Shown here in pieces: positions 21,648 to 57,053 of a DNA stretch of 64,000 bases (positions within the stretch are counted from its first letter, which is position 1; every line of letters starts with the position of its first letter). The translations under genes and the position numbers were made by a program. The stretch is taken from IMG/VR virus record IMGVR_UViG_3300014208_000002, positions 136,727-200,726 of that record, one strand, 5' to 3'. The stretch is from a virus. Taxonomy: Duplodnaviria; Caudoviricetes. The notes beneath the pieces were generated by a model, which was not told where the DNA came from, searched no databases, and saw only the letters and a program-made list of their open reading frames with translations.

Positions 21648-23042
21648 ATGGCAAAACCAAATGATAAAGCTAATCTTCAAAAAGAATGGAATAAGATTGT
21701 TGACTCCGAAAGATTTAAGTCCAATGTTGCCTTAAATATGGATATTAGTTTATCAGAAATTGATGATATAGGTAATTTACTCCCGGACCCTTTTGAGCAT
21801 TATAAGGATAATAGAAATGGCTCTGGCTATGTAATGAATGTAAAAGCAAAAGGCTATCCTGATAAGGACGATTTTGTTGAAAAAGCTTTAGAAGAGATTA
21901 AGTCAGAATTTCAGAAAAAAATGAAGTCTTCTTTTGATAAACTTGATAATGCCGATGAGCTTGAAGAACAATTCATTGATGAATTAGAAGCTTGGTTTGA
22001 TGGATATATGGAACATACTTTTTGGGATGATGTGGAGTTTGAAAAAGAAAACATTGAAATGACCGATGGCTGGGAAATGGTTGTTACTGGCCGTTCTGGT
22101 GGGTATTGGGGAGTAAGTGAGGATGCTCTTTCTACTGAGGATATTTTACCATCTGATAGGCTAATAAAAGAAATAAAAGATAAATTTAATGACTGGTATG
22201 ATGAAGAGGCAAGAGAGGACAATAATTTTGATGATGAAGATGATGATACTACTCAAATGGGTGATATTGATTCAATGGAAGACGCTTTAGACTCCGCACT
22301 TTACTCTGCGGGTCGCTCAGGTGAATATAATGATGACAGATTTTGGACATTGACAAAAGTAGCTATTTCCAAGTTTAAGGATTTAAAAGAAAATATTGAA
22401 GGCATTATTTCTGACATGGAGAGTACCGAACGCCATGTAGAGCCTTTTATGGATCAAGAACTATATGCAGAATTTGATGCTTGGAAAAATATTGATTTTT
22501 CTTGGGATGCAAAAGCAGATAGACAAAATGATTTCAAGTTTGAAAAGAAAGACTTTGGAAAGAAAATCCTTATTACTGAAGATACTCCTATCGGATTTGG
22601 TATTACACTAGAACGAGGGGATAAGATTCAGGTTTTGAAAGAAGCTAAACAAATAAAAGAAGCCGCACTTCCTGATAAAGTTGAAGCAATTATTAAAAAG
22701 TATGAAGCTAAAGACTATTGGGAAGACAATATTATTATTGATAACAAAATAAAATTTTGGGTAAGTATTGGCTCTCCCGAAGAAGTAAAAGGTTTTTCTG
22801 GAAAAGCCACAGAAGCCTCTATTCGTGAAGTTATGGTAAAGGGTTTAGGAGAAGAGCGCAGAAATTGGATAGCAAAATCAGTTGAAAGAATAAATAAAAA
22901 GGACGAAAAAGATATTAAATCTTTTGTTCGTGGTACGCAACCCTTTATGAAAGAAGTATTTACAGCGATTACAGGATTAGAAACAAAAGGCATGAGTGAT
23001 GCAAAATTAGACCCAATAATAAAGCAATGGTGTAATTCATAA
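21648..23042 (+). CDS. Acidic multi-segment hypothetical protein (candidate internal head protein)
   Basis: Late motif at 21618; internal LERGD module. Confidence 0.7.
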   Translation: MAKPNDKANLQKEWNKIVDSERFKSNVALNMDISLSEIDDIGNLLPDPFEHYKDNRNGSGYVMNVKAKGYPDKDDFVEKALEEIKSEFQKKMKSSFDKLDNADELEEQFIDELEAWFDGYMEHTFWDDVEFEKENIEMTDGWEMVVTGRSGGYWGVSEDALSTEDILPSDRLIKEIKDKFNDWYDEEAREDNNFDDEDDDTTQMGDIDSMEDALDSALYSAGRSGEYNDDRFWTLTKVAISKFKDLKENIEGIISDMESTERHVEPFMDQELYAEFDAWKNIDFSWDAKADRQNDFKFEKKDFGKKILITEDTPIGFGITLERGDKIQVLKEAKQIKEAALPDKVEAIIKKYEAKDYWEDNIIIDNKIKFWVSIGSPEEVKGFSGKATEASIREVMVKGLGEERRNWIAKSVERINKKDEKDIKSFVRGTQPFMKEVFTAITGLETKGMSDAKLDPIIKQWCNS

Positions 23043-23070
23043 TGAAAAATTAAAGATATGGAGATATAGT

Positions 23071-24819
23071 ATGGCAAGACAGCATTTAGTAGAGAATTTT
23101 TCAAAAGACTGGAAAGAGCCTCTAATTGTAACAAAACTTCCTCTTACTGAAAGCAACTCTTTAGTTGAATCTGATGGAAAACAATATAAGGCTATTGAGG
23201 GCTATGAAGTACCAGTATGGAGACTTGGGGTAAAAAATCTCAATGAGAGGGTTTATTCTGAGGCTTTAGGACGAAAAGTTATTAAGGAATTTGGTGGTTT
23301 AATTACTGCTAATCTTTCCGATCATCCCAAAGAGGATGGAAGTGTATCTGACATTCTCTCTGTTGCAAAAAACCCTCATATTAAAGAGGGCATTTTATAT
23401 GTAGATGCATTTGTTGTAGATGAAGCTTTTGCAAAGAAATTAAACAAAATGCATGAAGCCGGATATGGACTAGGGGTGTCTAGCTCATGTTATGGGGATT
23501 TGAATGAATCTACCGGCGAAGTATTAGAGGAAGGATTTGAAGTAGATCGTTTCTTTGATTGGGTTTTAACTCCTTCTTACTCTGTTTTTGTAACAGGGGC
23601 TAATAGAAAAGAATATAAAGAAGAAATAGAAAATAAACCTACTAATATAATTGAGGAAACTAAATCTGAAAATATAGAATTGGACAAAGTTCAAAAGGAG
23701 AATAGTATAATGAGCGACAAATTGACTTCCCTTGAAGAGAAGAATCTCAAGTTGGGGATTAAATCACTTTTTGAAAAGGCTGAGGCTAAGGTTGACCTGA
23801 AGGAAAAACTCGCTTCCTACAATGAGATTCTTGAATATTGCGAGGGAGTAGAGTTTGCCGCACCTTATGTTGAATCCGCAAATAGTGAAATCGCCAAGAT
23901 TGCCGAGGCTACTCATGTTCTTGCTGAAAAAGGCAAGCTTCTTGAGGGTGTAGAAAAGGAAAAGGCTTCTCTTGAAGAGAAGGCTAAGACGACTGAAAAG
24001 GCCGTCGATGAAGCTACTGGCACTCTTTCAAAGGTATCTGAAAACTTTGAAAAAGCCGTAAAGATGCTTGACGCATTCAAGCTTCGGGAAGGAAAGCTAA
24101 AGGAAATGTACGAAATTGCTATTGCTGAACGCAATGGTATGATTGAGGCTTCTGAATACAAGGAACTTGCTGAAAAGTATGATGAAATCGAAGAGAAGCT
24201 TGAAGACCTTATTGATGAAAATGCCAAGCTTTCTAAGATGACAAAGAAATACAAGAATCGTATCCTTCAACTTGAAGCTGATGCTGAAGAAGCTGATGAA
24301 GAGGACGAGGATGACGAAGAGGAAGAGAAGGCTAAAGAAGAAGCTACCCGAAATCGAAAGCGTAATCGCCGTGAAGGTGGTGGACTTGCCAATCTTGGTG
24401 ATAAGAAGGCTGAACCTTTTGATGCTGAAGATGCTAAAGAAGCTCGTGGCGAAAAGGATGATGATGACTCTGAAGATAAGGACGAGAAGAAAGAGGAAGG
24501 AAGAATCCGCCGACAGTATGATACTTCTTCTATTCGTGAAGATGATGAAGACGGTTATGACTTTACTGAAGGGGAAGAAATCCGAGAATATGTCAATGAA
24601 CTTCTTGAACAGAATCCCGCTAATAAGAGAATCAAAAATCAGCTTCTAAAGTGCAAGACACTCTTTGAGGCTCAGAAAACTTATCTTGACTTAATGGATT
24701 TAGTTGAAGATTCTCCTAGCCCATATAAACCTCGAATGAATGAAGGTAAGACCTATGGAGGTATTCAAGTATCCTCTGAATCTCCTCGAAATAATCTTGT
24801 TCGGAAGGGTTGGAGATAA
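23071..24819 (+). CDS. Prohead protease (T4 gp21-like) fused to a coiled-coil scaffold/core domain
   Basis: NLNERVYS, SDHP, GVSSSCYG, FDWVLTPS, then long acidic/basic coiled coil. Confidence 0.82.
   Translation: MARQHLVENFSKDWKEPLIVTKLPLTESNSLVESDGKQYKAIEGYEVPVWRLGVKNLNERVYSEALGRKVIKEFGGLITANLSDHPKEDGSVSDILSVAKNPHIKEGILYVDAFVVDEAFAKKLNKMHEAGYGLGVSSSCYGDLNESTGEVLEEGFEVDRFFDWVLTPSYSVFVTGANRKEYKEEIENKPTNIIEETKSENIELDKVQKENSIMSDKLTSLEEKNLKLGIKSLFEKAEAKVDLKEKLASYNEILEYCEGVEFAAPYVESANSEIAKIAEATHVLAEKGKLLEGVEKEKASLEEKAKTTEKAVDEATGTLSKVSENFEKAVKMLDAFKLREGKLKEMYEIAIAERNGMIEASEYKELAEKYDEIEEKLEDLIDENAKLSKMTKKYKNRILQLEADAEEADEEDEDDEEEEKAKEEATRNRKRNRREGGGLANLGDKKAEPFDAEDAKEARGEKDDDDSEDKDEKKEEGRIRRQYDTSSIREDDEDGYDFTEGEEIREYVNELLEQNPANKRIKNQLLKCKTLFEAQKTYLDLMDLVEDSPSPYKPRMNEGKTYGGIQVSSESPRNNLVRKGWR
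23710..24819 (+). CDS. Nested in-frame scaffold protein from internal start Met214
   Basis: TACTAATA at 23640 and AAGGAG at 23695-23700 precede an in-frame ATG at 23710. Confidence 0.65.
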   Translation: MSDKLTSLEEKNLKLGIKSLFEKAEAKVDLKEKLASYNEILEYCEGVEFAAPYVESANSEIAKIAEATHVLAEKGKLLEGVEKEKASLEEKAKTTEKAVDEATGTLSKVSENFEKAVKMLDAFKLREGKLKEMYEIAIAERNGMIEASEYKELAEKYDEIEEKLEDLIDENAKLSKMTKKYKNRILQLEADAEEADEEDEDDEEEEKAKEEATRNRKRNRREGGGLANLGDKKAEPFDAEDAKEARGEKDDDDSEDKDEKKEEGRIRRQYDTSSIREDDEDGYDFTEGEEIREYVNELLEQNPANKRIKNQLLKCKTLFEAQKTYLDLMDLVEDSPSPYKPRMNEGKTYGGIQVSSESPRNNLVRKGWR

Positions 24820-24883
24820 TAAAAAGATAAGCTAAATATAGCTTTCCGTTGGATTTAGAAATAACAATAAAAGGAGACTTATA

Positions 24884-27076
24884 ATGGCTGATACTGTAGT
24901 TAACGCAAGGGCAGGGTTTATTACTAATGGTGTATCCATTGGTACAAAGCATACTCTGACCGATGCTGAAATTAACGCTACAATGGGTGGATTAACAATT
25001 GATACCCTTGGCGTTGATGGCGTATATGAAGTTATTAAGGCGAAGATTACCGCTGGTGCGACTGTAGAAGGAAATGTTCGTTTTACCGTTCGTGGGGTAG
25101 CCGAAGATATTGCTCTACTTGCAACTGACACTACCGCCGCTGATGTAGCTACAAAAGTTGCCGCTGGTACTTGGGCTGGTTGGGCCGCTACTGTAGACCC
25201 ACTTGATGCTACTGGTGAAACAGTAATGTGGACTGCCACTACTACTGGGCCTAAAGTTGGTACAAACTCATTTACTGATTCTACCGCAACCGGAGTAACT
25301 TCCGCCGCTGGTGTTTTAGTTACAACTCCTGGAGTAACCGCTGTTGCTGAAATTCTAAAAATGGTCGTAGAAACTCCTTGTACTTTTACTGGAGAAGTTT
25401 TTGCTATCGTTCGTGGAGACTCCCAATATATTGCAGTAGCTTCTGGGGATACTGTTTCTCAAGTTGCAACTAAAATTGCTGGTGGAGCTTGGGCGGGATG
25501 GACACCTGCTATTGATCCTCTTGATGTTTCTGGTGCAACTGTTATGTGGACTGCTACTGTCGCTGAAGTAAAAGCAGGAACGAATGCTTTTGGTGGAGGA
25601 ACAACTGGGGTACTCGCTGGAGCTTTTGCAACAGAAGTAGTAGGAGTAACGGAAGTAACGGAAGTTATTAAAGCTACAATTGCAACAGGGTCTACTGCTG
25701 GTGGAGATTTGACAATTGTTATTCGTGATCTTTCTCATACAGTAGCTATGGCTGGAGATGCTACTGATGATACCCCTGAAGAAGTTGCCGCAAAGATAGC
25801 TTTAGTAGCTTGGGTAGGATGGACGGTTACTGTAGATGTTGATAATGTTACTGTTCTTTGGACTGCGACCGCCGCTGGCGCACAAACTGGAGCTATTACT
25901 TTTGCCGCCGCCGGAACTGGTGTTACACTTACAGGAACAATTGCCACTGATCCTGCTGGTGTTACTGGAGTAGCAGAACAAATTAGTTTAACTTTTACTC
26001 ATGAATGTTCTACTGTTGGGCAAATAACAATAAACATAGATGGTGTTTCTGAAGTAATTGCAGTATCTTCTTCATCTGAGTCAACTCCTGAACTTGTTGC
26101 AACTCAGGTTGCTACTGGTACTTGGGCTGGATGGACTCCTGCCGCAGTTGGGGCCAAAGTTACTTGGACAGCAACGGCTACTGGTGCAAAAGTTGGCGCA
26201 GAATTATTCAACGATGGAACAACTGGTGTAACGGCTCCTGGAGGTATTACAACTTTCCGTCTAGGTGTTTCTGAGGTAGCAGAAATAATTAAACTTACTA
26301 TTGCTACTGGTTGTACTTCTGATGATAGCGTTTATGTAACTATTCGGAATGTAACCGATACAATCGCTCTTACTGCCGCCGCACAAGCAACTCCCGCACA
26401 GGTGGCTACTGCAATCGCCGCAGGAACTTGGGCTGGTTGGACGCCAACCATAGAAACAGCGACTACTATAGTTTGGACAGCCGTTGCCGCTGGTGCGAAG
26501 ACTGGAACAAATACTTGGGGTGATAGTGGTTCTACTGGAGTCTCAGTTACAGGTGGATTAACTCGGTTTACTCTTGGTGTAACTGAAGTAGCTGAGATTA
26601 TTACTTTCCTTGTTGAAGCCGCTTGTCAAGCAAATGGAAATGTTTTAGCTACTATTCGTGGTGATACTCAAACAATTGCTATAACAACTGCCGATGATGA
26701 AGAAGCTGTTGCGACTGCAATCGCCGCAGGAACTTGGGCTGGTTGGACGGCATCTGTTGATGTAGATGGTGTTACTGTTATCTGGACAGCATCCGCCTTA
26801 GAAGCAAAAACAGGAGTAAATCATGTTGATGATGGTGCAACAGGAATTGTTGGAAATGATTTAATCTTTAATTTCAACTATAACGGTTCTGTAAATTATC
26901 CTCTTGTTGCTCGGGTTAATCTTCGCACTTCTACAGGATCACTATACAATGTGACTACTCAAGGACTACGAATTACTTATCCCGCTAACGGGAAAGTGTA
27001 TGTGAATAGAGGAACAGTTGTCGCTGGATGGGTAGCTGGTTCTATCCTAGATATAATCGCTCAGAGGGCTAACTAA
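24884..27076 (+). CDS. Ala/Thr/Gly/Val-rich structural protein with six ~100-aa repeats (candidate head decoration/spike)
   Basis: Six variants of VAxxIAAGTWAGWT; N- and C-termini match the adjacent 104-aa protein. Confidence 0.75.
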   Translation: MADTVVNARAGFITNGVSIGTKHTLTDAEINATMGGLTIDTLGVDGVYEVIKAKITAGATVEGNVRFTVRGVAEDIALLATDTTAADVATKVAAGTWAGWAATVDPLDATGETVMWTATTTGPKVGTNSFTDSTATGVTSAAGVLVTTPGVTAVAEILKMVVETPCTFTGEVFAIVRGDSQYIAVASGDTVSQVATKIAGGAWAGWTPAIDPLDVSGATVMWTATVAEVKAGTNAFGGGTTGVLAGAFATEVVGVTEVTEVIKATIATGSTAGGDLTIVIRDLSHTVAMAGDATDDTPEEVAAKIALVAWVGWTVTVDVDNVTVLWTATAAGAQTGAITFAAAGTGVTLTGTIATDPAGVTGVAEQISLTFTHECSTVGQITINIDGVSEVIAVSSSSESTPELVATQVATGTWAGWTPAAVGAKVTWTATATGAKVGAELFNDGTTGVTAPGGITTFRLGVSEVAEIIKLTIATGCTSDDSVYVTIRNVTDTIALTAAAQATPAQVATAIAAGTWAGWTPTIETATTIVWTAVAAGAKTGTNTWGDSGSTGVSVTGGLTRFTLGVTEVAEIITFLVEAACQANGNVLATIRGDTQTIAITTADDEEAVATAIAAGTWAGWTASVDVDGVTVIWTASALEAKTGVNHVDDGATGIVGNDLIFNFNYNGSVNYPLVARVNLRTSTGSLYNVTTQGLRITYPANGKVYVNRGTVVAGWVAGSILDIIAQRAN
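26408..26749 (+). repeat. Identical 36-bp direct repeat between protein repeats 5 and 6
   Basis: ACTGCAATCGCCGCAGGAACTTGGGCTGGTTGGACG at 26408-26443 and 26714-26749 (306 nt apart). Confidence 0.9.
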
Positions 27077-27126
27077 AAATATATAAAGAATGTTGGATTT
27101 ATACATAACAATAAAAGGAGTAAATC

Positions 27127-27441
27127 ATGGCTGATACAGTTATCAATTCACGAGGTTATATCACAAACGGCGTTTCTATTGGAAAGGTTTATACCATTAC
27201 TTCCGCTGATGTGACTAATGAAGCAATTCTTTTCAATCTAAATTATTATAGCACAGTAAATTATGCTCTTGTAGCAAGTGTTGTATTAAGAGACTCTTCT
27301 GGAAATGTAGTTAATGTGACTGCAAAAAGTCTTGAAATAACTTACCCCCTCAATGGTCAAGTTCGTGTAGCAAAGGGTTCCCTTACTACAGAATGGGCCG
27401 CAGGTGCTTTCTTGGACATTGTAATTCAAAGGTCTAACTAA
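27127..27441 (+). CDS. Small structural protein, short paralog of the 730-aa protein (candidate decoration protein)
   Basis: MADTVINSRGYITNGVSIG...LDIVIQRSN; lies upstream of the capsid gene. Confidence 0.75.
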   Translation: MADTVINSRGYITNGVSIGKVYTITSADVTNEAILFNLNYYSTVNYALVASVVLRDSSGNVVNVTAKSLEITYPLNGQVRVAKGSLTTEWAAGAFLDIVIQRSN

Positions 27442-27456
27442 ATTATTTGACAAAAA

Positions 27457-27486
27457 GGGGGGAAGATTACTTCCCCCTAATTTTCC
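27457..27486 (+). terminator. Rho-independent terminator
   Basis: GGGGGAAG-ATTA-CTTCCCCC hairpin followed by TAATTTT. Confidence 0.6.
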
Positions 27487-27500
27487 TATTAGGAAATATT

Positions 27501-27968
27501 ATGAAGAAATTTATTGTTGAAAAAACTGTAAGAATTCCTGACACAAAAATTATCCTCGAAAAAGGGGATAAGATAGTTATTATCTCTGAAGCAGAAGCAA
27601 CAGTAGGAATTCCCTCGGAGACAATAGTTGTCCCCTATAGTATTCCTATACCTGGATATGATAGTGAAGGTTCTTCTGCAATTATTGATGCTGGGCGAGA
27701 AGTAAAGTATAAAGTTGATATTACTGAAGCGGGCTTTTTGCTCACTCTTTATTATAGTCATTTGAAGAATATGCCATTTAAATTTGTAAAAGTTCCTCTT
27801 TTATTTACTTCTAAACAAGAAGCGGAATCAAAGGGATGGAATTTTAAGGATAGTGAATCAAAAGGAATAACAAACTCAATTCCCTCTGGCACAGAATTAA
27901 ATGGGGATGCAGGAATAGTGGATTCAAAAACAGTTAATGAAAAGTCTTATAGTAAGAGAAGGAAATAA
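27501..27968 (+). CDS. Hypothetical protein with N-terminal LEKGD module
   Basis: AGGA RBS then MKKFIVEKTVRIPDTKIILEKGD; start revised from 27447. Confidence 0.7.
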   Translation: MKKFIVEKTVRIPDTKIILEKGDKIVIISEAEATVGIPSETIVVPYSIPIPGYDSEGSSAIIDAGREVKYKVDITEAGFLLTLYYSHLKNMPFKFVKVPLLFTSKQEAESKGWNFKDSESKGITNSIPSGTELNGDAGIVDSKTVNEKSYSKRRK

Positions 27969-27970
27969 TT

Positions 27971-28378
27971 ATGAAAAAGTTTATAGTAGAGCAAGAAACC
28001 AAAATTCCCGACACCGATATTATTCTTGAAAAAGGCGACCGTGTTGCTGTTCTAAAAGAAATGGGTGATTTTGATGCTGATGATGCTACTGGCGAAATTA
28101 CTGGAAATGATGCTCTTAGACAACTGGTAAAGTTTGGAAAGTGCTATGCCTTTAGAGTATCAGACGGTTGGGAGAATGTTAATTGTATTGTAAAAATTCC
28201 TTGTAAAGTAAAAAAGCTTGGAAGATATATTAAGGCTTTTAATCTTTCAAAAGGTATCAATCTTGATGTTACCTTTATTTCTGATGTTAAACTTTCTAAT
28301 GGCATTGTTACCATAGAAACAAAGAAATATCAGACAATTGAATTTGCTGTTGATGAAGATGTAGCAAATAGTTTTTAA
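27971..28378 (+). CDS. Hypothetical protein with N-terminal LEKGD module
   Basis: MKKFIVEQETKIPDTDIILEKGD. Confidence 0.7.
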   Translation: MKKFIVEQETKIPDTDIILEKGDRVAVLKEMGDFDADDATGEITGNDALRQLVKFGKCYAFRVSDGWENVNCIVKIPCKVKKLGRYIKAFNLSKGINLDVTFISDVKLSNGIVTIETKKYQTIEFAVDEDVANSF

Positions 28379-28566
28379 TAATTATTGGGAGTTTTTAAAA
28401 AAACTCTACTAATATAAATGTAAGGAAATAGATATTTTTTCCTACAACCAGATTCTAATATCAATCTGATAAAGAAATACCTCAAATGGATTTCAAAAAA
28501 GTCTCATGTAAAAGAAAAGAATCCGTTGGATTCTAATGATGATTTATTATTTTAAGGATAACTATA

Positions 28567-30039
28567 ATGAGAAAGGATGCACTTAATGAAGCTGTAATCC
28601 GTGAGGATGCTTCTCAGAGAATGCAGGAAGTCAACCATATTGGTGACCGCCTTGTAGAAAAGTGGAGTCGCAAGAAGAATCTTGGCGAGGGCCTTGACAA
28701 GATGTATACCGAAGATCGCCGAAGGGCACGGAATACAGCTATCGTTCTTGAGAATCAGGAAAAGTATCTCAAGAGGCTGACTGAAGCTCAGATTTCTTCT
28801 GACTTTGCCACTACTCCCATCAATGTTCTTCGGGTAATCCGCCTTGGATACCCCAATTCAGTTCGTGGAGATATTTTCCATGAGTTCGCAATGACCACAG
28901 CCCGAGATAGCGTTTACTACCTCAAGCCTGTTTATGAGTCTTCTGCTCGTGGCGCAACTGCCGCTAATGTTACTTATGAGAATCCTTCTGATAGGTACTT
29001 CTCTGAGTATGAGAGGGAAGTTCCTACACAGACCCCCAACGGTGGAACTACTACTTTTACTGGTGCTACTGGTGGAAATCTCGGAAAGATTCCTCTTCGT
29101 CCCTTTACGGTTCGTATCATCGTTGATGGCGTAACTGTTGGTAATGATAATGGCGCTGGTGGATTTACGACAACTGCTCTGCTTACCCAGGCTTCTTGTA
29201 CGATTAACTATACCTCTGGTGCAATCTCCATCGTGTTCGCTTCCGCTCCTGCTACTGGAACGACAATTTACTTTGAGTATGCCTTTGACTCTGAAGTGTA
29301 CGGCGCTCTTAGCTCTGGACAGGGATATGACAATATCAAGTCCGTGAAGCTGACTCTTACCGACTACAACTTCCGTGCAAGGCCCTGGCCGCTCTATGTT
29401 TCCTGGAGCAAGATGACTGAGTTGCTTCTTGGAACGACTCTGGACATTGACGCTGAGGAAAGCTTACTTCGTGGCGCTGGTGATGAGTTAAAGAAATCAC
29501 TTGACTATCAGGCCGTAAGACTCGGTTATTCCTATGCTAAGGCACAGAATACCGTAACCTTCAACGCTGACTTCGCCGCCGCTGGTGCTGACTCTGCAAA
29601 GGATCATGCACAGTCCCTTACCCGGACCATCGCACAGGCTGAGAAGGTAATTTACAACGCTCTACAGAGGGGCGGAATTACTAACCTCGTTGCTGGTACT
29701 GATGTTGCTTCTTACCTTACTCTCCATGATCGGTTCACAGAGGAAGGTTCAATGCCCAAGATTGGTGTGTATCGCATTGGTACTCTGCTTGGTATCCCCG
29801 TATATCAGGCCCCGACCGATGTTATCCCTGCCAACGAAATGTTTGGTGTATGGCGCAATGAGCAGGAAATGAACGATGTGGCTATTGCCTTCGGCGTTCT
29901 CGTTCCTCTCTACCAGACTCAGACCCTTGAGTTCAAGGAAGCCTACAAGACCTCTGGTCTGTATTACTTCGGGGACCAAAAGGTACTTAACAGTCAATAC
30001 CTCGTCAACATCACAATTCAGGGTTTAACGGCTACCTGA
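28567..30039 (+). CDS. Major capsid protein (T4 gp23-like, HK97 fold)
   Basis: N-terminal delta-like segment ending LTE/AQ; RVIRLGYPN...FAMT...VYYL; KMTELL...DIDAEESLL; strong codon bias; terminator downstream. Confidence 0.88.
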   Translation: MRKDALNEAVIREDASQRMQEVNHIGDRLVEKWSRKKNLGEGLDKMYTEDRRRARNTAIVLENQEKYLKRLTEAQISSDFATTPINVLRVIRLGYPNSVRGDIFHEFAMTTARDSVYYLKPVYESSARGATAANVTYENPSDRYFSEYEREVPTQTPNGGTTTFTGATGGNLGKIPLRPFTVRIIVDGVTVGNDNGAGGFTTTALLTQASCTINYTSGAISIVFASAPATGTTIYFEYAFDSEVYGALSSGQGYDNIKSVKLTLTDYNFRARPWPLYVSWSKMTELLLGTTLDIDAEESLLRGAGDELKKSLDYQAVRLGYSYAKAQNTVTFNADFAAAGADSAKDHAQSLTRTIAQAEKVIYNALQRGGITNLVAGTDVASYLTLHDRFTEEGSMPKIGVYRIGTLLGIPVYQAPTDVIPANEMFGVWRNEQEMNDVAIAFGVLVPLYQTQTLEFKEAYKTSGLYYFGDQKVLNSQYLVNITIQGLTAT

Positions 30040-30065
30040 TAATTCATTACTGTAAAAAGACTTAT

Positions 30066-30096
30066 AAAAGCACTCCAGCAATGGGGTGCTTTTTTA
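30066..30096 (+). terminator. Rho-independent terminator after the capsid gene
   Basis: AAAAGCACTCCA-GCAA-TGGGGTGCTTTT with GNRA loop and T-tract. Confidence 0.88.
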
Positions 30097-30137
30097 TTGC
30101 TTGAAGGTATTTCAAAATTATATTATACTAATATCGT

Positions 30138-30788
30138 ATGAATATACATGAAATCCGTTATCAAAAATTTATTAAGTCTCGAAAAGATAGAACAATTCCA
30201 AAGGATTCTATTATTGAAAAACATCATATTATTCCAAAATCTTTAGGTGGGGATAATTCAAAAGAAAATCTAATTAAACTTACAGCGAAGGAACACTTCA
30301 TTGCTCATCTAATTCTTTGGAAAGCTTATGGAGGAAAAATGGCTCAAGCATTTTTTATGATGAATCAAAGAAATACTACAAGTGGAAAATATGAGGGTAA
30401 ACTAACTTCCAGACAGTACAGTCGTTTAAGAGAGGATCATTCTATATATCGTAAAAAATTTCAGCATAAAGAAGAGTCTAAAAAGAAAACAAGTGCTTCA
30501 ATGATAGGCGTTTCAAAGTCTCAATCTCATAGAGAAAATATAGCAAAAGCTAGAAAAGGTACTCATACTTCCGATGAAGTTAAAAAGATTCTTTCTGAAT
30601 CTCATAAAGGAAAAAAACTCTCTCCTGAATCCATTGCTAAACGAACAGAAACAAGACGAAAAAATGGAATTAAGAAACAATATAATAGAAAGCCTTATTC
30701 TCCCGAGGAAAAAGCTTTAATTGGGCAAAAAATATCTGAATCTAATAAAAAACGATGGGCTAAAATAAAACAAACCTCCAGTCAATAA
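30138..30788 (+). mobile_element. Free-standing HNH homing endonuclease with NUMOD3 repeats
   Basis: EKHHIIPKSLGGDNSKENLIKLTAKEHFIAH; close paralog of 18864. Confidence 0.88.
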
Positions 30789-30851
30789 ATCCTTTTTTAC
30801 TTACTAATATAATAGAAATAAGTCTTTTCTAATAAAAAGAGAGGAAAAGGT

Positions 30852-31586
30852 ATGTCTTTAACTATTGCAGACTCTATATATAATCGTATCATGGCTTCGG
30901 TTGGCTTTCCAATTGTGAATGAAGATGACCTTGGAGTAAATAAAGATTTCGTAAAAGAAACACTTATTCTTCCAGCTATGATGTATTACTATAAGTTTTT
31001 TCCTATTCGTAGCAAAGTAATTTACTCAGTGGATATGAGTTGGGAAGTACCCTTCCCGGATTCTAATACAATCGGGGTACTTTCCTGTCGAATGAATTCA
31101 AATGTTTTAGGTGGTGGTACTCATGTTCAAAATCCTTTAATAAATGAACAAAATATTACTATTGCCACTTCAGGCGGTTCACGGGGAATGTGGGGTACGC
31201 AAAATGATTATGGTATGACCGCCGCACGAACGATGCGTTCAAATGAAAGACAAGGCATTATTGAAAACGCACGGACATTTAGATACCAGACGAATGAAAA
31301 TACAAGAGTAGTAGAAGGATTTACAAATATATTTGGTCGTCTTGAAATAGAGTGGGCAAAGATGAGTGAAAACTTTGCGGATATATCATTTCGGCGTCAA
31401 GAAGAAGTAATCATGCTTGCGAAAGCTTATGTATGTGAATACTTCGGAGGATTACGAAAGCAAGCAACTTCAAGTCTACCAACTGAAATGACTGGTGATG
31501 ATCTAATCGAGCAAGCAGATAAATGGAGAGAGAAAGTAGAAACACTCTGGCAAGAATTTACAAAAGTTGCAATTCAGAGAGGCTAA
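30852..31586 (+). CDS. Probable neck/head-tail adaptor (T4 gp13-like)
   Basis: RIMASVGFPIVNED resembles the gp13 N-terminus; follows the capsid gene; late motif. Confidence 0.5.
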   Translation: MSLTIADSIYNRIMASVGFPIVNEDDLGVNKDFVKETLILPAMMYYYKFFPIRSKVIYSVDMSWEVPFPDSNTIGVLSCRMNSNVLGGGTHVQNPLINEQNITIATSGGSRGMWGTQNDYGMTAARTMRSNERQGIIENARTFRYQTNENTRVVEGFTNIFGRLEIEWAKMSENFADISFRRQEEVIMLAKAYVCEYFGGLRKQATSSLPTEMTGDDLIEQADKWREKVETLWQEFTKVAIQRG

Positions 31587-31589
31587 ATC

Positions 31590-32009
31590 ATGCGAATAAT
31601 TAAAGAAGATGCTATATCAAAACTCACAGATAAAAAAATAGTTGATGAGATTGTTTCCTTTATTAAATCTAACCCCTTTCCTCTTGACCATGAACAATTC
31701 CATAAACATTTTGAAGACTTGGGTTATGAAGAAACTGGAGATATAGAACAGTATGCGTATGCTATGCTTTCTGTAATATTAACGGGTGGCGCATCTAAAG
31801 GAAAGACTATAAAAGCGAGTAAGGAAAATATAGCAATTGGAAAGAAAATTGAAACTGAGCATGTTTCTACTGGAATAGATAACGAAGTAATCAAATATAT
31901 AGAAAGCATTTTTGGTGATAAAATTATGTTTGACCATCTATCTGAGACTGACTCCTATTATACTGATGGCGTTGATTTTAAAAAAGAATTAAAAGACGAG
32001 GATAAGTAA
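31590..32009 (+). CDS. DUF5661-like protein with MRIIKE tag
   Basis: GKKIETEH...IMFDHLSETDSYY. Confidence 0.6.
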   Translation: MRIIKEDAISKLTDKKIVDEIVSFIKSNPFPLDHEQFHKHFEDLGYEETGDIEQYAYAMLSVILTGGASKGKTIKASKENIAIGKKIETEHVSTGIDNEVIKYIESIFGDKIMFDHLSETDSYYTDGVDFKKELKDEDK

Positions 32010-32746: not shown

Positions 32747-32775
32747 TTACTAATAAGATATAAAAAGGATATTAT

Positions 32776-36946: not shown

Positions 36947-37816
36947 ATGAAAATCATTGAAGTAAAAAAGCCAGTACGGATTGAAGGGTATATCCTCGAA
37001 GAGTCTGATCTTATTCAACTTCTTGAAGCAGATGAATTATATCTTGACATAGAGCTTTATGAAGAATACTGCCACTGGACAAAATCTACAGACTATGGAC
37101 GAAAAATATATGAAGGAAGGATGAGCGACCTGTTATTAAAAGTAACCGAGTTTGTAAAAATGCTGGCAAATAAATTGAATTGTAAAATAAGAGAGTTATT
37201 CAAGCTTCTAAAAGATAAGTTTGTATTTTCCTTTTTTCAAAACCTTGGGTGGAATTGGGATTCATTATTAAAATTAGTTTCTGTAGCATCCTCTATTTTT
37301 ACTACTATTATGAATCCTATTGGCGCAATTATCAATCTAATTTTTCCTGATTTAGTCGCAAAGACAACTACAAAATTAAATGACCTAAAACAAATAAAAA
37401 ATATGCGAGAGCGTATGAAGAAGTTTTCAGAGTGGGCTAAGAAAAATAAAAAGATACTTATGATTTCTGGCATTGCCTTTGCTGGATTATATTTGATAAT
37501 TTGGCTTACAATGAATAATACAGGCGATGTAACCTACGATTTTGATATTTCTGATTTACTTGCCGCTCTTACTGGTAAAATAACTTTCTTTGACTGGGTT
37601 ATGTCTGAGGATGGTTTTAGACAACTCATTCTCTTTGGGTTGGCTGTGGCTGGTATTGGTAATTCTGCTATTCTTGCTAACATAGCAACATCAGGAATAC
37701 AGCTAACTGTCTCTCTGATAAGACTACTATTAGATAAGGCAAGAATAAAACTTCAAAAAGGAAAAGACAAAAACCCCGATGAAGTTATTCACGATGAAGT
37801 AGCTGATTTAGTATAA
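36947..37816 (+). CDS. Membrane protein with N-terminal LEESD module
   Basis: Hydrophobic segments ILMISGIAFAGLYLIIWL and LILFGLAVAGIG... Confidence 0.65.
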   Translation: MKIIEVKKPVRIEGYILEESDLIQLLEADELYLDIELYEEYCHWTKSTDYGRKIYEGRMSDLLLKVTEFVKMLANKLNCKIRELFKLLKDKFVFSFFQNLGWNWDSLLKLVSVASSIFTTIMNPIGAIINLIFPDLVAKTTTKLNDLKQIKNMRERMKKFSEWAKKNKKILMISGIAFAGLYLIIWLTMNNTGDVTYDFDISDLLAALTGKITFFDWVMSEDGFRQLILFGLAVAGIGNSAILANIATSGIQLTVSLIRLLLDKARIKLQKGKDKNPDEVIHDEVADLV

Positions 37817-44469: not shown

Positions 44470-44478
44470 AAAAATAAG

Positions 44479-51024: not shown

Positions 51025-51105
51025 ACAAAAGCGCACATTCTGTCAAATTGACAAAAATCTCTAATATGTCCACTTTTCATATCAATAATTTAGATAAACT
51101 TTCTA

Positions 51106-51134
51106 TTGACAAGCCCCTCTTTCTAGTCTATACT
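51106..51134 (+). promoter_or_regulatory. Near-consensus sigma70 early promoter
   Basis: TTGACA-17 bp-TATACT, followed by GAGGGAGG RBS. Confidence 0.85.
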
Positions 51135-51162
51135 TTAGGTAGGAATTGAGAGGGAGGAACAA

Positions 51163-51441
51163 ATGGCTAACGAGTTGACCATCAATCTGAGGAGCAAGGG
51201 AGTTGAACTTCTCCCGGATTCTGACCGCTACAAGTGCCGCTTCACGGTTAGGTCCGAATCTTCTAATAGGCTCTATATGGTATCTTTCGACATGGCTCCT
51301 GGAGCGGGATACTGGAAATGCTCCTGCCCTGGATGCCTCCGCACGGGTCAGTGTAAACACCTGACGGCTATGGGGCTGAAGGGGAGACAATACGGGAAAG
51401 ATTTGAAGACCCTCAAGATTTTGGCTGGAGCTTCAAAATGA
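51163..51441 (+). CDS. SWIM zinc-finger protein
   Basis: WKCSCP...CKHL. Confidence 0.75.
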   Translation: MANELTINLRSKGVELLPDSDRYKCRFTVRSESSNRLYMVSFDMAPGAGYWKCSCPGCLRTGQCKHLTAMGLKGRQYGKDLKTLKILAGASK

Positions 51442-51749
51442 CTTCTACCAAAAAAGCTCCGAAGAAAAATCCCTGGAAAGACGCTCTCTATGGAACCTAT
51501 GAGGGGGAGAGAGGGAGTTTCAAATCCTGGCAACAGTCTTTTGGTTCCGCTTGGGACGGGCGGACGGCAGAGGAAATTATTGATACCGATACTCCTTGGG
51601 GGATTCTTGGTATTCCGACCGGAAGCGCAATGGAGATAATCAAATCCGCTTTCAGGAAGCTCTCTAAGATTCATCATCCTGATATGGGTGGAAATCCTGA
51701 GACTTTCAAAAAGATACTTGCGGCATACTACATGGTGAAGGGGAAATAA
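51438..51749 (+). CDS. J-domain (DnaJ-like) protein
   Basis: PWGILGI...IKSAFRKLSKIHHPDMGG...AY. Confidence 0.85.
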   Translation: MTSTKKAPKKNPWKDALYGTYEGERGSFKSWQQSFGSAWDGRTAEEIIDTDTPWGILGIPTGSAMEIIKSAFRKLSKIHHPDMGGNPETFKKILAAYYMVKGK

Positions 51750-51750
51750 T

Positions 51751-52047
51751 ATGTCCTATGAAACCTACGATTTTATGACTACTACTCCTTCAGAAGAAGA
51801 TTGTGTTCAGGTTATGACTGGGGAAAATTATCTTCCCGCCATGACCGCAGAGGCAATGCGGATGATTAAGATTTGTAAGAATAAATGGCCTACTCTGACA
51901 TGGAGTATCGCCGTTCATGACCATGACTTCGGAAAGTATCTTACTGTTCAATGTGAGTTCGACCCTGATAATGAAATTCATACAACTCTCCTTCAGCTTA
52001 TTGAAGAGAATTGGCCGGAAACTTGGGAAGAGGCGGAAACAGTATGA
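51751..52047 (+). CDS. Acidic hypothetical protein
   Basis: Coupled ORF with RBS. Confidence 0.65.
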   Translation: MSYETYDFMTTTPSEEDCVQVMTGENYLPAMTAEAMRMIKICKNKWPTLTWSIAVHDHDFGKYLTVQCEFDPDNEIHTTLLQLIEENWPETWEEAETV

Positions 52048-52592
52048 AATCTGCTCAAGCAAAATTCCAAATAGGTCTTTCTAAAGAAAGGCTTCAATAT
52101 ATATTTACTGATAAAAATACCCTAAAAGTAAATAATAGCTTTGTATTTTTTAATGGGCAGATAACACCCATTGCCATATCTTCTGACCAGATTATTTTCA
52201 AATGTACTTTTCCTGAATATTCTGAAGAAATCCTTGTGTCTATTCTTTTTAATGATAAAAGTTTTGATTTTCGAGTTCATGGGTTCCCCGATGATTTTGA
52301 TATGAGAAGCATAGTAGCAAGAATTCGGGAATTCTCGGACAAGATATTTGGTAGAAGGCTTTCTCTTATAACGAATGGGCCTTTAGGACAACCCCCCAGT
52401 AACAAAAAAGTTTTTTTACCTTCTATTCATCGTCTACGGGGTAGGCCGAGAAATGCACTCCCAACAATTGTATTGCCTAAAAGACCAAGAGGAAGACCAA
52501 AAAACCCAATTCTAGAGAATCCCTTGCCTAAGCGATCAAGAGGTAGGCCGAGGAAGAACTTAGTTAATATTAAAGAGGAGAAAACAGTATGA
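52044..52592 (+). CDS. AT-hook protein (three RGRP motifs)
   Basis: RLRGRPRN, KRPRGRPKN, KRSRGRPRK; start revised to 52044. Confidence 0.7.
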   Translation: MKSAQAKFQIGLSKERLQYIFTDKNTLKVNNSFVFFNGQITPIAISSDQIIFKCTFPEYSEEILVSILFNDKSFDFRVHGFPDDFDMRSIVARIREFSDKIFGRRLSLITNGPLGQPPSNKKVFLPSIHRLRGRPRNALPTIVLPKRPRGRPKNPILENPLPKRSRGRPRKNLVNIKEEKTV

Positions 52593-53698
52593 CCGACGAC
52601 CGCAGGAAGCTGGTTGAGGCGTTTGAGGCCGCAAGGATAAGGCATCAAGAGTTTCGTCGGCTTGGATGCTATGGCCAGCAAGTAACGGAATGGATACTTG
52701 AATGTGAGCAGTCACTAGGCGAACGAAAGGGAGCACTTGAAGCTCTCCGTGCCTACGACGCCGAGCATCAAGAGAGGAGCGAATAATTGAATTATAAGCA
52801 TACGCCCGGCCCCTGGTTTAGGGGATACGGAAACTTTATTTACAGGGATGAACGGAAGATTTCCCTTCTTGCTACATTTTGTCCCCCCAATGGAGATAGA
52901 GGGGAGCTTGAGGAGGCTTTCGCCAATGCTACTCTTTGTTCTGCCGCTCCTGATCTTTTAGAGGTGTGCAAAATGGTACACGAAGCGAATAGTTTTTCTA
53001 GTATAGATTGGAGAATGCTCGAAAGAGCTATTCAGAAAGCGGAAGGAAATTAAAATGGAAATGAAACTTTTTGGCAGGGCGCTTGTAGTTCGTGGAGAAT
53101 GTCCTTATTGTGACCACGAAGAGAATTATTCAGGAGACTATTGTTCTACTTATACTTGTTCAAGATGTAAGTCCGAGTTTAATGTTGAAGAATTTTTAGG
53201 GAGGGATTAAAATGAAAACTTACCGTAATGATTTTGACAAGTCATACAAGAGGATGGGAATACTTATTTACTGCATCTGGGGAATTGCCATTCTTGGCGT
53301 TATTCTTACAATCGTAGGGATTATTTATCTTGGCGGAAAAGTGCTGTCAACCTCCCCGCAGGAAGTAGGACAATTCTTCGGAAATATTGTCAACGGGTTT
53401 GAAGAAGTACAGAAATAAAGGGAGGAATATTATGGTAACTTTTGACAATCCAATCTTTGAAGAGCTATTCAACGGGCTTTTCACCGGAGAGAAAGAAAGG
53501 GAATTGAAGATTATTTTTTATGAGAACGGTGGTTGTCTTCCTATGATGTATTCTAATGACGATAAGTATATTCCTAAATATGAGGAGACTATTCAAAAAA
53601 TGGAAAGAGATATTGCCAAAGCAAAAAAAGCTATGGCACTATTCACCATTATGCGAGAAGCAAAGGTGGACTATACTCCAGAGGAGGAGGAAAAGTAA
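52589..53698 (+). CDS. Small early genes (52589-52786, 52787-53053, 53055-53210, 53212-53418, 53432-53698)
   Basis: 52787 has the common phage HTPGPW...AAPDLL pattern; 53212 has one TM segment. Confidence 0.6.
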
Positions 53699-53699
53699 A

Positions 53700-53882
53700 A
53701 TGGAGAACGAATATTCCCTTAAACCCTGTCCCTTCTGCGGAGGAAGTGCTAAATTAGCATCAGGCCCCTGGACGATGAAGTATGTTGTGTGTGAAGTATG
53801 TGACGCTGAAGGGCCTTATCTTAAAGGTAAGGATGAAGCAATAGAAGCATGGAATAGTAGAGTTCCTATAGAGGAGAACTAA
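53700..53882 (+). CDS. Lar-family restriction-alleviation zinc ribbon
   Basis: LKPCPFCGG...VVCEVC.AEGP...EAIEAWN.R; start revised to 53700. Confidence 0.75.
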   Translation: MENEYSLKPCPFCGGSAKLASGPWTMKYVVCEVCDAEGPYLKGKDEAIEAWNSRVPIEEN

Positions 53883-54516
53883 AATGACTTTGGATGATTG
53901 TAGTCTTTCTGATGAAGACTATGAAAAGAAGTGTAAGAAAGATACTCGGACTATGTGGGAAGTCTGTCGTCAAGATGGCGCTCTTATGGCGGTAGATTTC
54001 TGGTGTATTCGATATATTAACCTCCCGGTAAGTATTCGCTATACCCTTCTCTACCATCCTCTTAGGTGGTGGGGACAGAGTAAGCTAGGGCGGTACTTGA
54101 CTACTAGGGTTTACAGGAGGAGAACAAATGGCGTATAAAAGCCGGTGGACCGAATTAAAGAAGGAATTTAATGCAGGATATAAAGAAGCCGTTAGACTCG
54201 GCTTAGACCAGAGAGAAAATTGGACTCCTCTCTATATTTATATCCATGTAAGTAGGCTTTTACTTGGGATGTTTATGGGCATACTTCTCTGTTTGCCTAT
54301 AATAGTTTTATTTATTTTGAATTAAAGTATGACTAATCAAGAAATATTTTTAATGCAAAAAGCAAATAACTTTGGTCTACAGGGATATAAGGTTATTGCC
54401 TGGATTCCTCCACAATCTGCTGGGGATAATCCAGATGGAACTTTTATTCTTCAAAAGGAAGAAAATAAATAGAATAAACTACTATTCCTCTACTAATACT
54501 ATAGAAGAGGAATGAA

Positions 54517-55212
54517 ATGGGTGTTTATGATAAATTATCTATGGCTTTTGGGAAACAAAAAAGAAAGCTTTTTGATTATCAAATTTCTTTGTCTGGCACA
54601 GAGGCTAAAGTAGTTTTACTCAAATTAAATAATAATAAATATAAAGATGAAGAAGTAGAGATAGTCAAACATTTTATCACTGATATGATTATTGATATTC
54701 CTGGCGAAATTCCTATAGACAGACTTCGTACAAATGTCCTTGTTCCACGGGCTACAACACAATCTATTTTTTTCTACGATGTACTTCCTATACAGGTTTT
54801 CACAAAGTTTGAAGATAACCTTGAACGAGGCGACATTCTTATTCAAAGAATAACAATGGACAATCTTGAATATTATATGGTACTTGAAATTGCTGATACT
54901 TTAGGTGATGTTCTTGGACGAAACATAATTTATAAAAAGCATAATGCCGCTCCTTGTACTCAAAACCTTCCGGCTGAAGTAGAAACAATTTTAAATACCT
55001 ATAAAGGACTTGATAATAAATCAGATTCAACTTTATTAAATTCAATAAATATAGTAACAACTCAGTATGATCCAACAATCACTGGTGAAGCAAATGTTAG
55101 TCTTAGCTCTCAAACCTCAAATATTACTACTAATACAATAACGGCAAAAAGTATTCTTTCCGTTGGATTGAATAGCCAAGATATTGAAATAGAATCTTAC
55201 CAAATAACATAG
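54517..55212 (+). CDS. Late protein, possibly head-completion/neck (gp14-like)
   Basis: Late motif at 54491; beta-rich; position only. Confidence 0.4.
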   Translation: MGVYDKLSMAFGKQKRKLFDYQISLSGTEAKVVLLKLNNNKYKDEEVEIVKHFITDMIIDIPGEIPIDRLRTNVLVPRATTQSIFFYDVLPIQVFTKFEDNLERGDILIQRITMDNLEYYMVLEIADTLGDVLGRNIIYKKHNAAPCTQNLPAEVETILNTYKGLDNKSDSTLLNSINIVTTQYDPTITGEANVSLSSQTSNITTNTITAKSILSVGLNSQDIEIESYQIT

Positions 55213-55223
55213 GAGAACATATT

Positions 55224-55643
55224 ATGGCGGACCTCATTTTCAACAGATTTGTTACTAACCTTGCTACAAAGCAAATTTCTTTAACTGGAGATATTATAAA
55301 AGTTGCGCTTTTTCCAGTGGCTTATGTTCCTAATCATTTAACTCAAAATGTTTGGGCAGACATTTCAGCGGCAGAGTGTACTGGTACAGGTTATACAACT
55401 GGTGGAGCAATTTTAGCTTCAAAAACCGTAACAGAGGATGAGTCTGGCGGTGGAGCAGTTTTTGATTGTGCTGATGTTACTTGGGTGAATTCTACAATAA
55501 CCGCTCGATATGCAGTTCTCTATGATGATACTCTTGCAACAAAAGACCTTATTGCTGTTTATGATTTTGTAACCGATAAGGTTAGCTCTGGTGGCGATTT
55601 CGTACTGACAATAAATGCTTCAGGGCTTTTCAAAATCGCCTAA
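55224..55643 (+). CDS. Virion structural beta-protein (tail/baseplate-associated family)
   Basis: IKVAL...ECTGTGYTTGG...FDCADVTW...TITARYAVLY...LIAVYDF. Confidence 0.65.
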   Translation: MADLIFNRFVTNLATKQISLTGDIIKVALFPVAYVPNHLTQNVWADISAAECTGTGYTTGGAILASKTVTEDESGGGAVFDCADVTWVNSTITARYAVLYDDTLATKDLIAVYDFVTDKVSSGGDFVLTINASGLFKIA

Positions 55644-55653
55644 GTAAAATAAA

Positions 55654-56161
55654 ATGGATATTGAAGTTCTATTAGAAAGTATAAATATAAATATCTATCC
55701 TCAAAATCCAGAGGGGCAAGTCTTTCTAAATAGTAACACAATTTCAGTATCTCAATTTAAGCCGTCTTTTCCAAAAAATGTAAATATCCCGAGAGGTATA
55801 TTCCGAGAAAACTCTTATATCGACTTAATAATTGAATCTGTTTCCGAAATAGCAAGAGGGTAGTATATTGAATAGACTAATAAAAGGACAAACAGCCCTA
55901 AGAATTAAATTATGCACAAATGTCAGTTTATCCTCTGTTACCTCTGCTCGAATAAAATATATTAAGTCAAATGGAATTACTGGCTATTGGGCGGCAGAAT
56001 TAGAGTCTGCTACAGATTCAATTTATTATGATATATTATCATCCAATGACTTAGATGTAGCTGGTATTTGGAAAATGTGGTCATACCTTATATTTACCAA
56101 TGGAAATATAGCCACAGGAAAAACAGTAGAATTTTTAGTAGTAGATGAAGGGGAAACCTAA
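55654..56161 (+). CDS. Two small structural genes (55654-55863; 55868-56161 BppU-N-like)
   Basis: IKYIKSNG...W...DLDVAGIWKM pattern in the second. Confidence 0.5.
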
Positions 56162-56225
56162 AAATCCTCTACTAATACAAAGTAGGAAAGAAAAAATCTT
56201 TTCTAATAATTAAAGGAGAAATTGT

Positions 56226-57053
56226 ATGGCAAAGTATGTTGAAGTAAAGATTACAAAGCCCGTCCGTGTCGGGTCAATCATGTTAGAAAAGGGTGATATT
56301 ATTCGGATTATTCCTCGCCAGAATGAGGATACGATTGAAAGCCCTAACCCCTATGACCAGAATCCTGATAAGGAATATCTGACTTCCGGTGATCCTAATG
56401 CAAGTGATTATTCCGCAGAGAATGACCCCGATTTTGATACCGATCAGAGAGCAACACAAAGGGATGAATCTCGCAGGAGCAAGAATTCCAAAAGGGCAAA
56501 GAAAGAAGATTTCGGTGGTGACGAGTTCGGTGACGAGTTCGGTGATGACCTTGTAGATGATGGTTTTGGTGATGATGAGTTTGGTGATGAAGATGATTTC
56601 TATATGGAATCCCGCAAGCGCAGGAATCGCAGGAATCGCAAATCCGAAATGACCGCAGATGCCGCCATTGCTAACAATGATGATGCCAAGAAAGCCGCCG
56701 AGGATTCTCGGATTTCTGGTGATGTAGATGCTGGCTCTGACCCCGACTTTGATACGGATCAGCGGGCGACTCAGAGAGATGAAAAGCGAAGATCACGCAA
56801 AAATCGCTATGTAGAAACTGATGATGAAGATGAGGATGATAAAGATGACGACAAAGAAGACAAGGATGACGAGAAGAAAGACGACAAGGAAGACAAGGGA
56901 AGCGATTCTATGGACGACAAGATGGCTAAACTCCGTGCCGCCAAGAAAGAGGCTATGAAGGCTCTTGCTAAGTATCGCAAGCTCAAGGAAGAGGACGAAG
57001 AAGACTCTGACGAAGAGGATGATGATGACGAGGATGAAAAAGACTCTGACTAA
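56226..57053 (+). CDS. Highly acidic repeat protein with LEKGD module (candidate prohead core protein)
   Basis: Late motif at 56170; DPDFDTDQRATQRDE twice; capsid-like codon bias; terminator downstream. Confidence 0.7.
   Translation: MAKYVEVKITKPVRVGSIMLEKGDIIRIIPRQNEDTIESPNPYDQNPDKEYLTSGDPNASDYSAENDPDFDTDQRATQRDESRRSKNSKRAKKEDFGGDEFGDEFGDDLVDDGFGDDEFGDEDDFYMESRKRRNRRNRKSEMTADAAIANNDDAKKAAEDSRISGDVDAGSDPDFDTDQRATQRDEKRRSRKNRYVETDDEDEDDKDDDKEDKDDEKKDDKEDKGSDSMDDKMAKLRAAKKEAMKALAKYRKLKEEDEEDSDEEDDDDEDEKDSD

Follow-up and report, generated by a model that had tools for sequence, protein, structure and literature searches.

An undescribed 28-residue mini-domain on unrelated late proteins of uncultured T4-like phages, a possible label for capsid loading

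What does a short module found on otherwise unrelated late proteins of one phage do for the proteins that carry it? The question is raised by a 64,000-nucleotide stretch of DNA (hereafter the window), the final 64 kb of the complete genome of an uncultured virus (IMG/VR record IMGVR_UViG_3300014208_000002). An initial annotation had noticed there a module of about 28 residues, with the core L-E-(K/R/E)-(G/S)-D, on five late proteins and had read it as a swappable tag for packaging cargo into the capsid. The genome comprises 200,726 bp with direct terminal repeats (CheckV completeness 100%, 35% G+C). It is T4-like by its major capsid protein, the product of the open reading frame (ORF) at 28567-30039, which matches Pfam Gp23 at 1e-8. 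The distance to GenBank phages is large, with a best capsid-protein identity of 29%, and a single-protein scan of IMG/VR with the capsid protein gave no match. Judged from sequence, the module is a mini-domain not described before, widespread in a single clade of T4-like phages that have not been cultured.

All five reported copies are present in the window at the positions first given for them; the complete genome holds seven, two of them outside the window, and a six-frame search of the genome returned exactly 7 module matches. With a profile hidden Markov model (HMM) in a leave-one-out design, each copy was recovered among all 907 ORFs at E-values of 6e-13 to 7e-3, the best non-member having an E-value of at least 0.15. 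The module is N-terminal in five of the seven. The five copies in the window are all on the plus strand. ORF 21648-23042, which sits between the portal and protease genes, encodes a 464-residue product with an internal module at residues 305-332 (22560-22643; profile HMM, leave-one-out and six-frame search) that is directly followed by the tandem sites VLKE/A and QIKE/A, the slash marking the putative point of cleavage; an orthologue (P0114) has the same internal module. Two neighbouring ORFs, both recovered by the profile HMM and in leave-one-out, begin with the module: 27501-27968 (155 residues; module at 27501-27590, ending IISE/A) and 27971-28378 (135 residues; module at 27971-28060, ending VLKE/M). 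The first of these has AGGA 8 nt 5' of its ATG, at which a database gene call (P0005) also begins, and a module-carrying orthologue (P0010). A 289-residue membrane protein (ORF 36947-37816) starts with a 27-residue copy whose first hairpin is shorter (36947-37027, ending LLE/A), and a 275-residue acidic-repeat product (ORF 56226-57053) starts with a copy at 56226-56318 (profile HMM, leave-one-out); in L008 the positional counterpart of this last product is an acidic protein with 3 modules. Outside the window, the profile HMM of the rest of the genome added an N-terminal copy in G000:C1:1247-1618 and an internal copy in G000:C1:674-1219, the latter at an E-value of 1.3e-9 and not in the training set. 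The module of this last gene begins at an in-frame Met (residue 85) with AAGGAAAA just before it, and a metagenomic orthologue of 103 residues (P0013) has this Met as its first residue, so that translation may also begin inside the gene or yield a nested product.

The bearers are otherwise unrelated, as the initial annotation held: with the module masked, the seven proteins have no significant similarity to one another (best E-value 0.012 in a 7-sequence database). The reported (I/L)xE site at the end of the module is found in six of the seven local copies. Identical residues of different copies often use different codons (11 of the 19 shared by the neighbouring copies at 27501 and 27971), so that the likeness is old and has been kept at the protein level. 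The same differences rule out recent gene conversion as its source.

A module profile of 31 positions was scored against 1.84 billion representative proteins with a cut-off of E <= 1e-3. The similarity proved significant, and the family extends to hundreds of proteins in uncultured relatives: 301 protein clusters were matched, with a best score of 82 bits, and every context examined belonged to one uncultured phage clade. Most matches are proteins of 80-160 residues with the module at or near the N-terminus and unrelated sequence beyond it; the module starts at most 15 residues from the called start in 111 of 165 database domains. Of the best 150 matches, 15 contain the module two or three times, with acidic, Lys-rich linkers in between. 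The consensus is I-E-I-K-E-D-V-R-I-P-G-T-D-I-I-L-E-(K/A)-G-D-K-I-(E/Q/R)-V-L-K-E; across 138 aligned copies L, E and D are invariant and G is more than 90% conserved. Directly past the module conservation is lost and the sequence becomes rich in D, E, K and S.

The module had not been recognised as a described family, and our searches agree, with no match in Pfam, PHROGs, NCBIfam, PDB sequences or GenBank phages. The best Pfam scores for the module (TrkA_C, SH3_2, PRS7_OB and FlbD) were 12.8-16.7 bits, below the cut-offs of 21.8-27, and among the 138 copies an E-value of 0.004 was reached by only 4 for TrkA_C and 3 for FlbD, all sub-threshold. The same copies gave nothing at threshold in PHROGs and NCBIfam. 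A PDB sequence profile search had a best E-value of 0.46, and the ESM Atlas held nothing above noise (no match >0.82). A whole-protein homologue search with the 135-residue bearer found only itself, and a literature search on the motif strings found no relevant paper.

The 135-residue bearer was modelled by AlphaFold2 with the 138-sequence module alignment. Residues 1-30 form four short strands with a predicted local distance difference test score (pLDDT) of 92/97/87. The linker of residues 31-40, directly past L-K-E, drops to a pLDDT of 55, and a separate beta-rich cargo domain follows. With high confidence, the module is predicted to be a self-contained beta mini-domain of 27-30 residues that folds alone. 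Its first half is a hairpin (I-E-I-K-E-D-V-R-I-P-G-T) and its second half a GD-box (D-I-I-L-E-K-G-D-K-I-E-V-L); the strand pattern gives it one hydrophobic face. A natural two-module protein, P0003, was modelled with a pLDDT of 75 and a predicted template modelling score (pTM) of 0.56, and its edge strands are longer than those of the single module. Fold searches with this two-module model gave no significant match, with VIA-align Z <=3.6, a Foldseek PDB E-value of 0.6 (tandem SH3) and a BFVD E-value of 1.2, the unit being too small for them to decide. A dimer of the AbrB type, with swapped hairpins, is a further conceivable arrangement. The cargo of the 27971 bearer has a weak likeness to PH/HutX-like beta folds (E-value 0.017) and no significant match in fold searches.

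The GD-box supersecondary motif is said to go back to Alva et al. in 2009. Its consensus is aliphatic-x-aliphatic-x-x-G-polar-x-aliphatic-x-aliphatic (PMC9907106), which the module's I-I-L-E-K-G-D-K-I-E-V matches exactly; the column counts are I/V, I, L, E, K/A, G, D, K/R, I, x, V/I, and the models have strands on both sides of the turn. This fit accounts for the weak matches to SH3, OB and TrkA-C models. The module differs from the general motif in two respects. A GD-box is usually a building block within domains of at least 50 residues, whereas here it makes up half of a standalone 28-residue unit on a flexible linker; and the Glu two residues before the Gly is invariant in the module but not part of the general motif.

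Is there a protease in this phage that could cut at the end of the module? The plus-strand gene at 23071-24819 encodes a 582-residue product in which a gp21-like prohead protease (the N-terminal ~190 residues) is fused to a coiled-coil acidic scaffold. A profile of the N-terminal domain from the clade aligned by hhalign with T4 gp21 at a probability of 93% and an E-value of 3e-7 over 142 columns, with the His (DHP/NHP) and Ser (GLSSSGYG/GVSSRGLG) motifs in register. In the capsid protein, alignment with T4 gp23 places L71-T72-E73 (plus strand, 28777-28785) at a position where L-T-E is invariant among five capsid proteins of the clade and T4 gp23, and which we take to be the gp23 propeptide cleavage site (FLTE/AEIGGDHGY). 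The gp23 propeptide has 65 residues (PMC5694885). When [LI]xE was counted in all ORFs of at least 80 residues and compared with composition-preserving shuffles, the protease-scaffold came out at the top of the genome's ORFs with 29 sites against 12.8 expected (z 5.6), an excess to which the composition and periodicity of the coiled coil might add. Such an excess would be expected if the protease domain degrades the scaffold to which it is fused throughout its length; the T4 scaffold gp22 is degraded at such sites (PMC9026906). From the gp21 homology, the invariant LTE at the gp23 site and the enrichment in the scaffold, we infer a T4-type protease with (L/I)xE specificity.

The ends of the modules carry the same signature. 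Among the 161 database modules with at least six residues after the module, 109 (68%) have an [LI]xE that ends 9-13 residues past the invariant Leu, compared with a background of 7.9% in equal windows of cargo, a proportion inflated by the L-x-E columns that the collecting profile included. S, A or G stands at P1', the position after [LI]xE, in 47%. In the multi-module acidic proteins, I-L-E or I-I-E, with A or S next, comes after every copy except terminal ones. Six modules at the C-terminus of their protein, a small sample, stop at V-L and lack x-E, so that the Glu is not needed for the fold.

The genomic context of the module was traced in loci of relatives, whose capsid proteins are 46-56% identical to that of the window. 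Genes for head assembly surround the module genes wherever a context was recovered, and this setting recurs from one independent contig to another. Collection with a degenerate DNA pattern for G-T-D-I-I-L-E-x-G-D yielded six real loci; two further hits, L007 and L012, read GTDIIFEDGD and were rejected as chance matches. Locus L010 has the protease-scaffold, four module genes, the capsid gene, three more module genes and an Hsp20-like gene, and L005 has a module gene, portal, protease-scaffold, module gene and capsid gene with two more module genes later. In L006 and L017 an internal-module protein adjoins the protease, as does the 464-residue protein in the window, and portal homologues 36-40% identical to the window's adjoin the protease in L005, L009 and L017. 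Module genes lie 3' of capsid and neck genes in L004 and L015; two lie 5' of the large terminase gene in L020. Arrays of two to five module genes stand just upstream of a g1629 homologue and the tail sheath gene in L008, L016 and L019, the same place that the two extra copies of the present genome occupy. L021 has six in a row; an IS605 OrfB/TnpB (Cas12f-like) gene lies just upstream of this array (L021:4931-6133).

Three complete genomes carry 7, 7 and 8 copies, namely 7 here and 7 and 8 in two relatives of ~147 kb. Only one of the ~45 module ORFs in relatives has cargo similar to that of this genome, and neighbouring structural genes are 30-56% identical. Copy number is stable and cargo turns over. 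One cargo can be followed through several phages. The 36947 membrane protein has orthologues whose cargo is 42-65% identical to its own: in three the module is complete, two have the GD-box half alone (M-K-E-I-L-L-E-K-D-D-F...) and one lacks the module and starts with M-N-I-L-E-K. The cargo itself can thus do without the module. Such a pattern is to be expected of a label that can be removed, but not of an integral part of the protein.

Taken together, the gene context, the homology of the protease, the statistics of its sites, the flexible linker, the turnover of cargo and the orthologues that have lost the module make the loading of cargo into the forming capsid the best-supported role, with the module as a label that the protease can remove; we put its chance at somewhat below even. 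We infer core binding, cleavage, packaging and the fate of the cargo as follows. The module would act as a portable address label that binds a conserved component of the prohead interior (the scaffold core, the protease or the inner capsid wall), and would thereby incorporate about seven different proteins per genome into the prohead. Cutting by the gp21-like protease at the (L/I)xE adjoining the module, within the flexible hydrophilic linker, would follow and release the cargo within the head. Acidic proteins with several modules would be broken down into small peptides, like T4 gp67 and gp68. The fuller version of this proposal, in which a position-independent folded 28-residue mini-domain serves the whole large uncultured T4-like clade as a capsid-loading label, docks on the scaffold-protease core, where it completes or extends a beta sheet, and is released at the adjoining (L/I)xE, is a conjecture to which we give about one chance in three.

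How does such a label compare with known ones? The capsid-targeting sequence (CTS) of T4 IPI, IPII, IPIII and Alt, reportedly the subject of work by Mullaney and Black in 1996, reads M-K-T-Y-Q-E-F-I-A-E; set beside this sequence, the module consensus is different and no likeness was seen. The CTS is a 10-residue propeptide that ends in L/I-x-E and loads diverse internal and foreign proteins into the core (PMC9026906, PMC3012670). Shared with it are a conserved leader on diverse, fast-evolving cargo, the L/I-x-E end, a gp21-type protease and a gp23-type capsid protein. In contrast to the CTS, which has ~10 residues, is strictly N-terminal and has no reported fold, the module has 27-30 residues and a predicted beta fold, frequently occurs inside a protein or in repeats, and coexists with a separate short CTS-like tag; its function is a proposal. 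Neither sequence nor length places the module within the T4 CTS; should the function hold, it would be a new form of such a label.

The ejection and inner-body propeptides of the giant phages phiKZ, 201phi2-1 and SPN3US are longer than the T4 CTS and are cut after Glu by a diverged gp21 homologue; they are thought to target the prohead, paralogues among them can have identical leader residues, and several redundant sites may be present (PMC5694885, PMC7411985). They share with the module a length greater than that of the CTS and, if it is cut as proposed, cleavage after Glu by a gp21-type protease, and differ from it in having ~80-130 residues, in being specific to paralogue families and in being cut at A/S/G-x-E; they are not one short module on unrelated cargo. 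Encapsulin cargo-loading peptides would be another parallel, being short and portable and directing unrelated cargo into a shell with the HK97 fold. Those peptides are C-terminal, of ~10 residues, unstructured until bound, not removed by a protease and without sequence relation to the module. In T4, gp67 and gp68 are prohead core proteins encoded between portal and protease and are precursors of internal peptides. The 464-residue internal-module protein lies in the same place, and the acidic multi-module proteins would also become short peptides; gp67 and gp68 have no such module, and no sequence similarity to them was detected.

The initial proposal of a capsid tag stands in part. A real family, unrelated cargo, head-gene context, a gp21-like protease and the usual (I/L)xE end support it, and the idea of a simple N-terminal tag is not borne out as it stands: about half of the copies in the complete relatives are internal or C-terminal, behind domains of 70-160 residues. 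This departure from the T4 CTS weighs against loading, and other observations do so too. The 56226 copy is the sole local copy without (I/L)xE at its end. Two local bearers adjoin tail genes rather than head genes. No cultured relative was found, and tblastn of the module and of a whole bearer against 50,697 GenBank phage records gave no real match. The contribution of the coiled coil to the scaffold's sites and that of the profile to the share of modules with [LI]xE count on the same side.

A further challenge comes from a short motif, M-(R/K)-x-(I/L)-(K/R)-E-(S/D/E), at the head of at least 11 ORFs (for instance M-R-I-I-K-E-S and M-R-Y-I-R-E-S). In the window it occurs at the ORF starts 31590, 32776, 33065, 34033, 36048, 42936, 57129 and 57480, and outside the window at G000:C1:123950, the start of a 1351-residue PARP-type protein (M-K-R-I-D-E-A). 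It contains (I/L)xE at residues 4-6 and is nearer to the T4 CTS in length than the module is. The regions ahead of internal modules often start with this same short motif (M-R-x-I-x-E), and short tag and module stand together in the single proteins P0015, P0051 and P0111. Orthologues of the 34033 protein keep the short tag and none carries the module; an exchange of tag for module was sought among them and none was seen. The module may therefore not be the targeting element. Since the short tag is closer to the CTS in length and both can share one protein, the module is a distinct element; should the short tag correspond to the T4 CTS, the module would have to contribute something further. Candidate roles are a second address, a position-independent docking domain and a processing cassette.

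What else could such a domain do? It could be a general association or oligomerisation mini-domain of late proteins, joining bearers to one another or to a multi-module hub, with no role in loading and with LxE as part of the last strand. We think this unlikely, at roughly one chance in four. Placement of the module at the N-terminus, internally, at the C-terminus or in two to three tandem copies with acidic linkers (P0002, P0003, P0007, L008) would suit such a role; the single hydrophobic face would need a partner, the model of P0003 combines its pTM with lengthened edge strands, and some bearers adjoin tail or terminase genes. However, two thirds of the non-terminal copies retain the Glu of LxE and none of the 6 C-terminal ones does, and orthologues that retain the cargo have lost or halved the module, as a removable label would and a structural joint would hardly do.

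Less probable again, at about one chance in six, is that the module serves the prohead protease as a substrate-docking or processing cassette that splits polyproteins or activates pro-forms, with head targeting achieved by other means such as the short tag; the sites presented, at the same low probability, would be I-K-E in strand 1, the invariant I-L-E and the terminal L-x-E. The I/V-L-E within the module is itself an invariant (L/I)xE whose Glu the generic GD-box consensus does not demand. Many internal-module proteins begin with a short tag, the 464-residue protein has its tandem sites past the module, and one orthologue of the 36947 cargo retains M-N-I-L-E-K alone. Yet T4 gp21 needs a three-residue motif only (PMC9026906), so that a conserved 28-residue fold exceeds what a cleavage site requires, and N-terminal copies preceded by few residues would release nothing useful on their N-side.

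It is improbable that the module anchors variable display domains on the capsid exterior in the manner of a decoration protein. Its genes do adjoin capsid and decoration genes, and the cargo is small, variable and often beta-rich; on the other hand, a membrane protein with several passes and repeat proteins of high acidity are among the cargo, the paralogous pair 24884-27076 / 27127-27441 already resembles a decoration protein, and the cleavage-site pattern would be purposeless. A likeness by chance among generic beta hairpins with a GD turn (SH3, OB, TrkA-C or KOW type), with no family behind it, has a negligible probability: the exact match of the second half to a widespread consensus (PMC9907106) and the sub-threshold Pfam matches to TrkA_C, FlbD, PRS7_OB and SH3_2 would suit it, but it is contradicted by leave-one-out recovery with a clear gap to non-members, by 301 database clusters scoring up to 82 bits from a 31-position profile, by conservation of the first hairpin as well, and by contexts that all belong to one phage clade.

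If capsid loading is indeed the role of the module, the T4 CTS principle would extend from a 10-residue peptide of one phage group to a domain that is structured and widely conserved, in a clade for which metagenomes are the only source, and the packaged, probably injected proteins, about seven per genome, could be read directly from sequence. Their fast turnover would make them plausible factors of host takeover or counter-defence. For the loading of foreign proteins into phage heads, the module would offer a second tag, one of defined structure. The component of the prohead core that is bound by a targeting sequence, a gap of long standing, would become directly testable, a folded domain being suited to pull-downs, co-folding and structures. 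Even if loading is wrong, the module is a mobile mini-domain family that is new to Pfam, PHROGs and NCBIfam.

Relatives also have another mobile mini-module, which is helical and has the core L-L-K-G-L-A-(T/F)-S-D-D-P-x-A-x-x-F-M-K-x-L-D. It stands before or after the LExGD module in fusions at L015:3768-4403 and L016:8300-8893 and in P0027, P0033, P0116 and P0136, and is absent from this genome. The late region of the window also encodes an Hsp20-like small heat-shock protein (57887-58375; phrog_432, E-value 6.5e-12), homologues of which directly follow an array of module genes in L010 and, in L009, stand between the genes for capsid and decoration proteins. That this protein is linked to the module, for example by binding its I-x-I strands, is pure speculation.

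The head-assembly cluster, which contains three module genes, starts with the plus-strand portal gene (19630-21594; weak match to Pfam Phage_portal). HNH-type endonuclease-like paralogues lie just 5' of the portal gene (18864-19637) and just 3' of the capsid gene (30138-30788); both contain I-R-Y-Q-K-F-I-x-S-R-K-(N/D)-R-x-I-P, and they are probably homing endonucleases on both sides of the cluster. In T4 the late-promoter element is TATAAATA. A comparable role is likely for TACTAATA, which occurs 37 times on the plus strand of the whole genome versus 7 times on the minus strand; 30 of the plus-strand copies lie at most 60 nt upstream of ORF starts, including those of the sheath gene, other structural genes and three module genes. 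In the window such copies precede ORFs 21648 (by 22 nt), 30852, 54517, 56226 and 61192.

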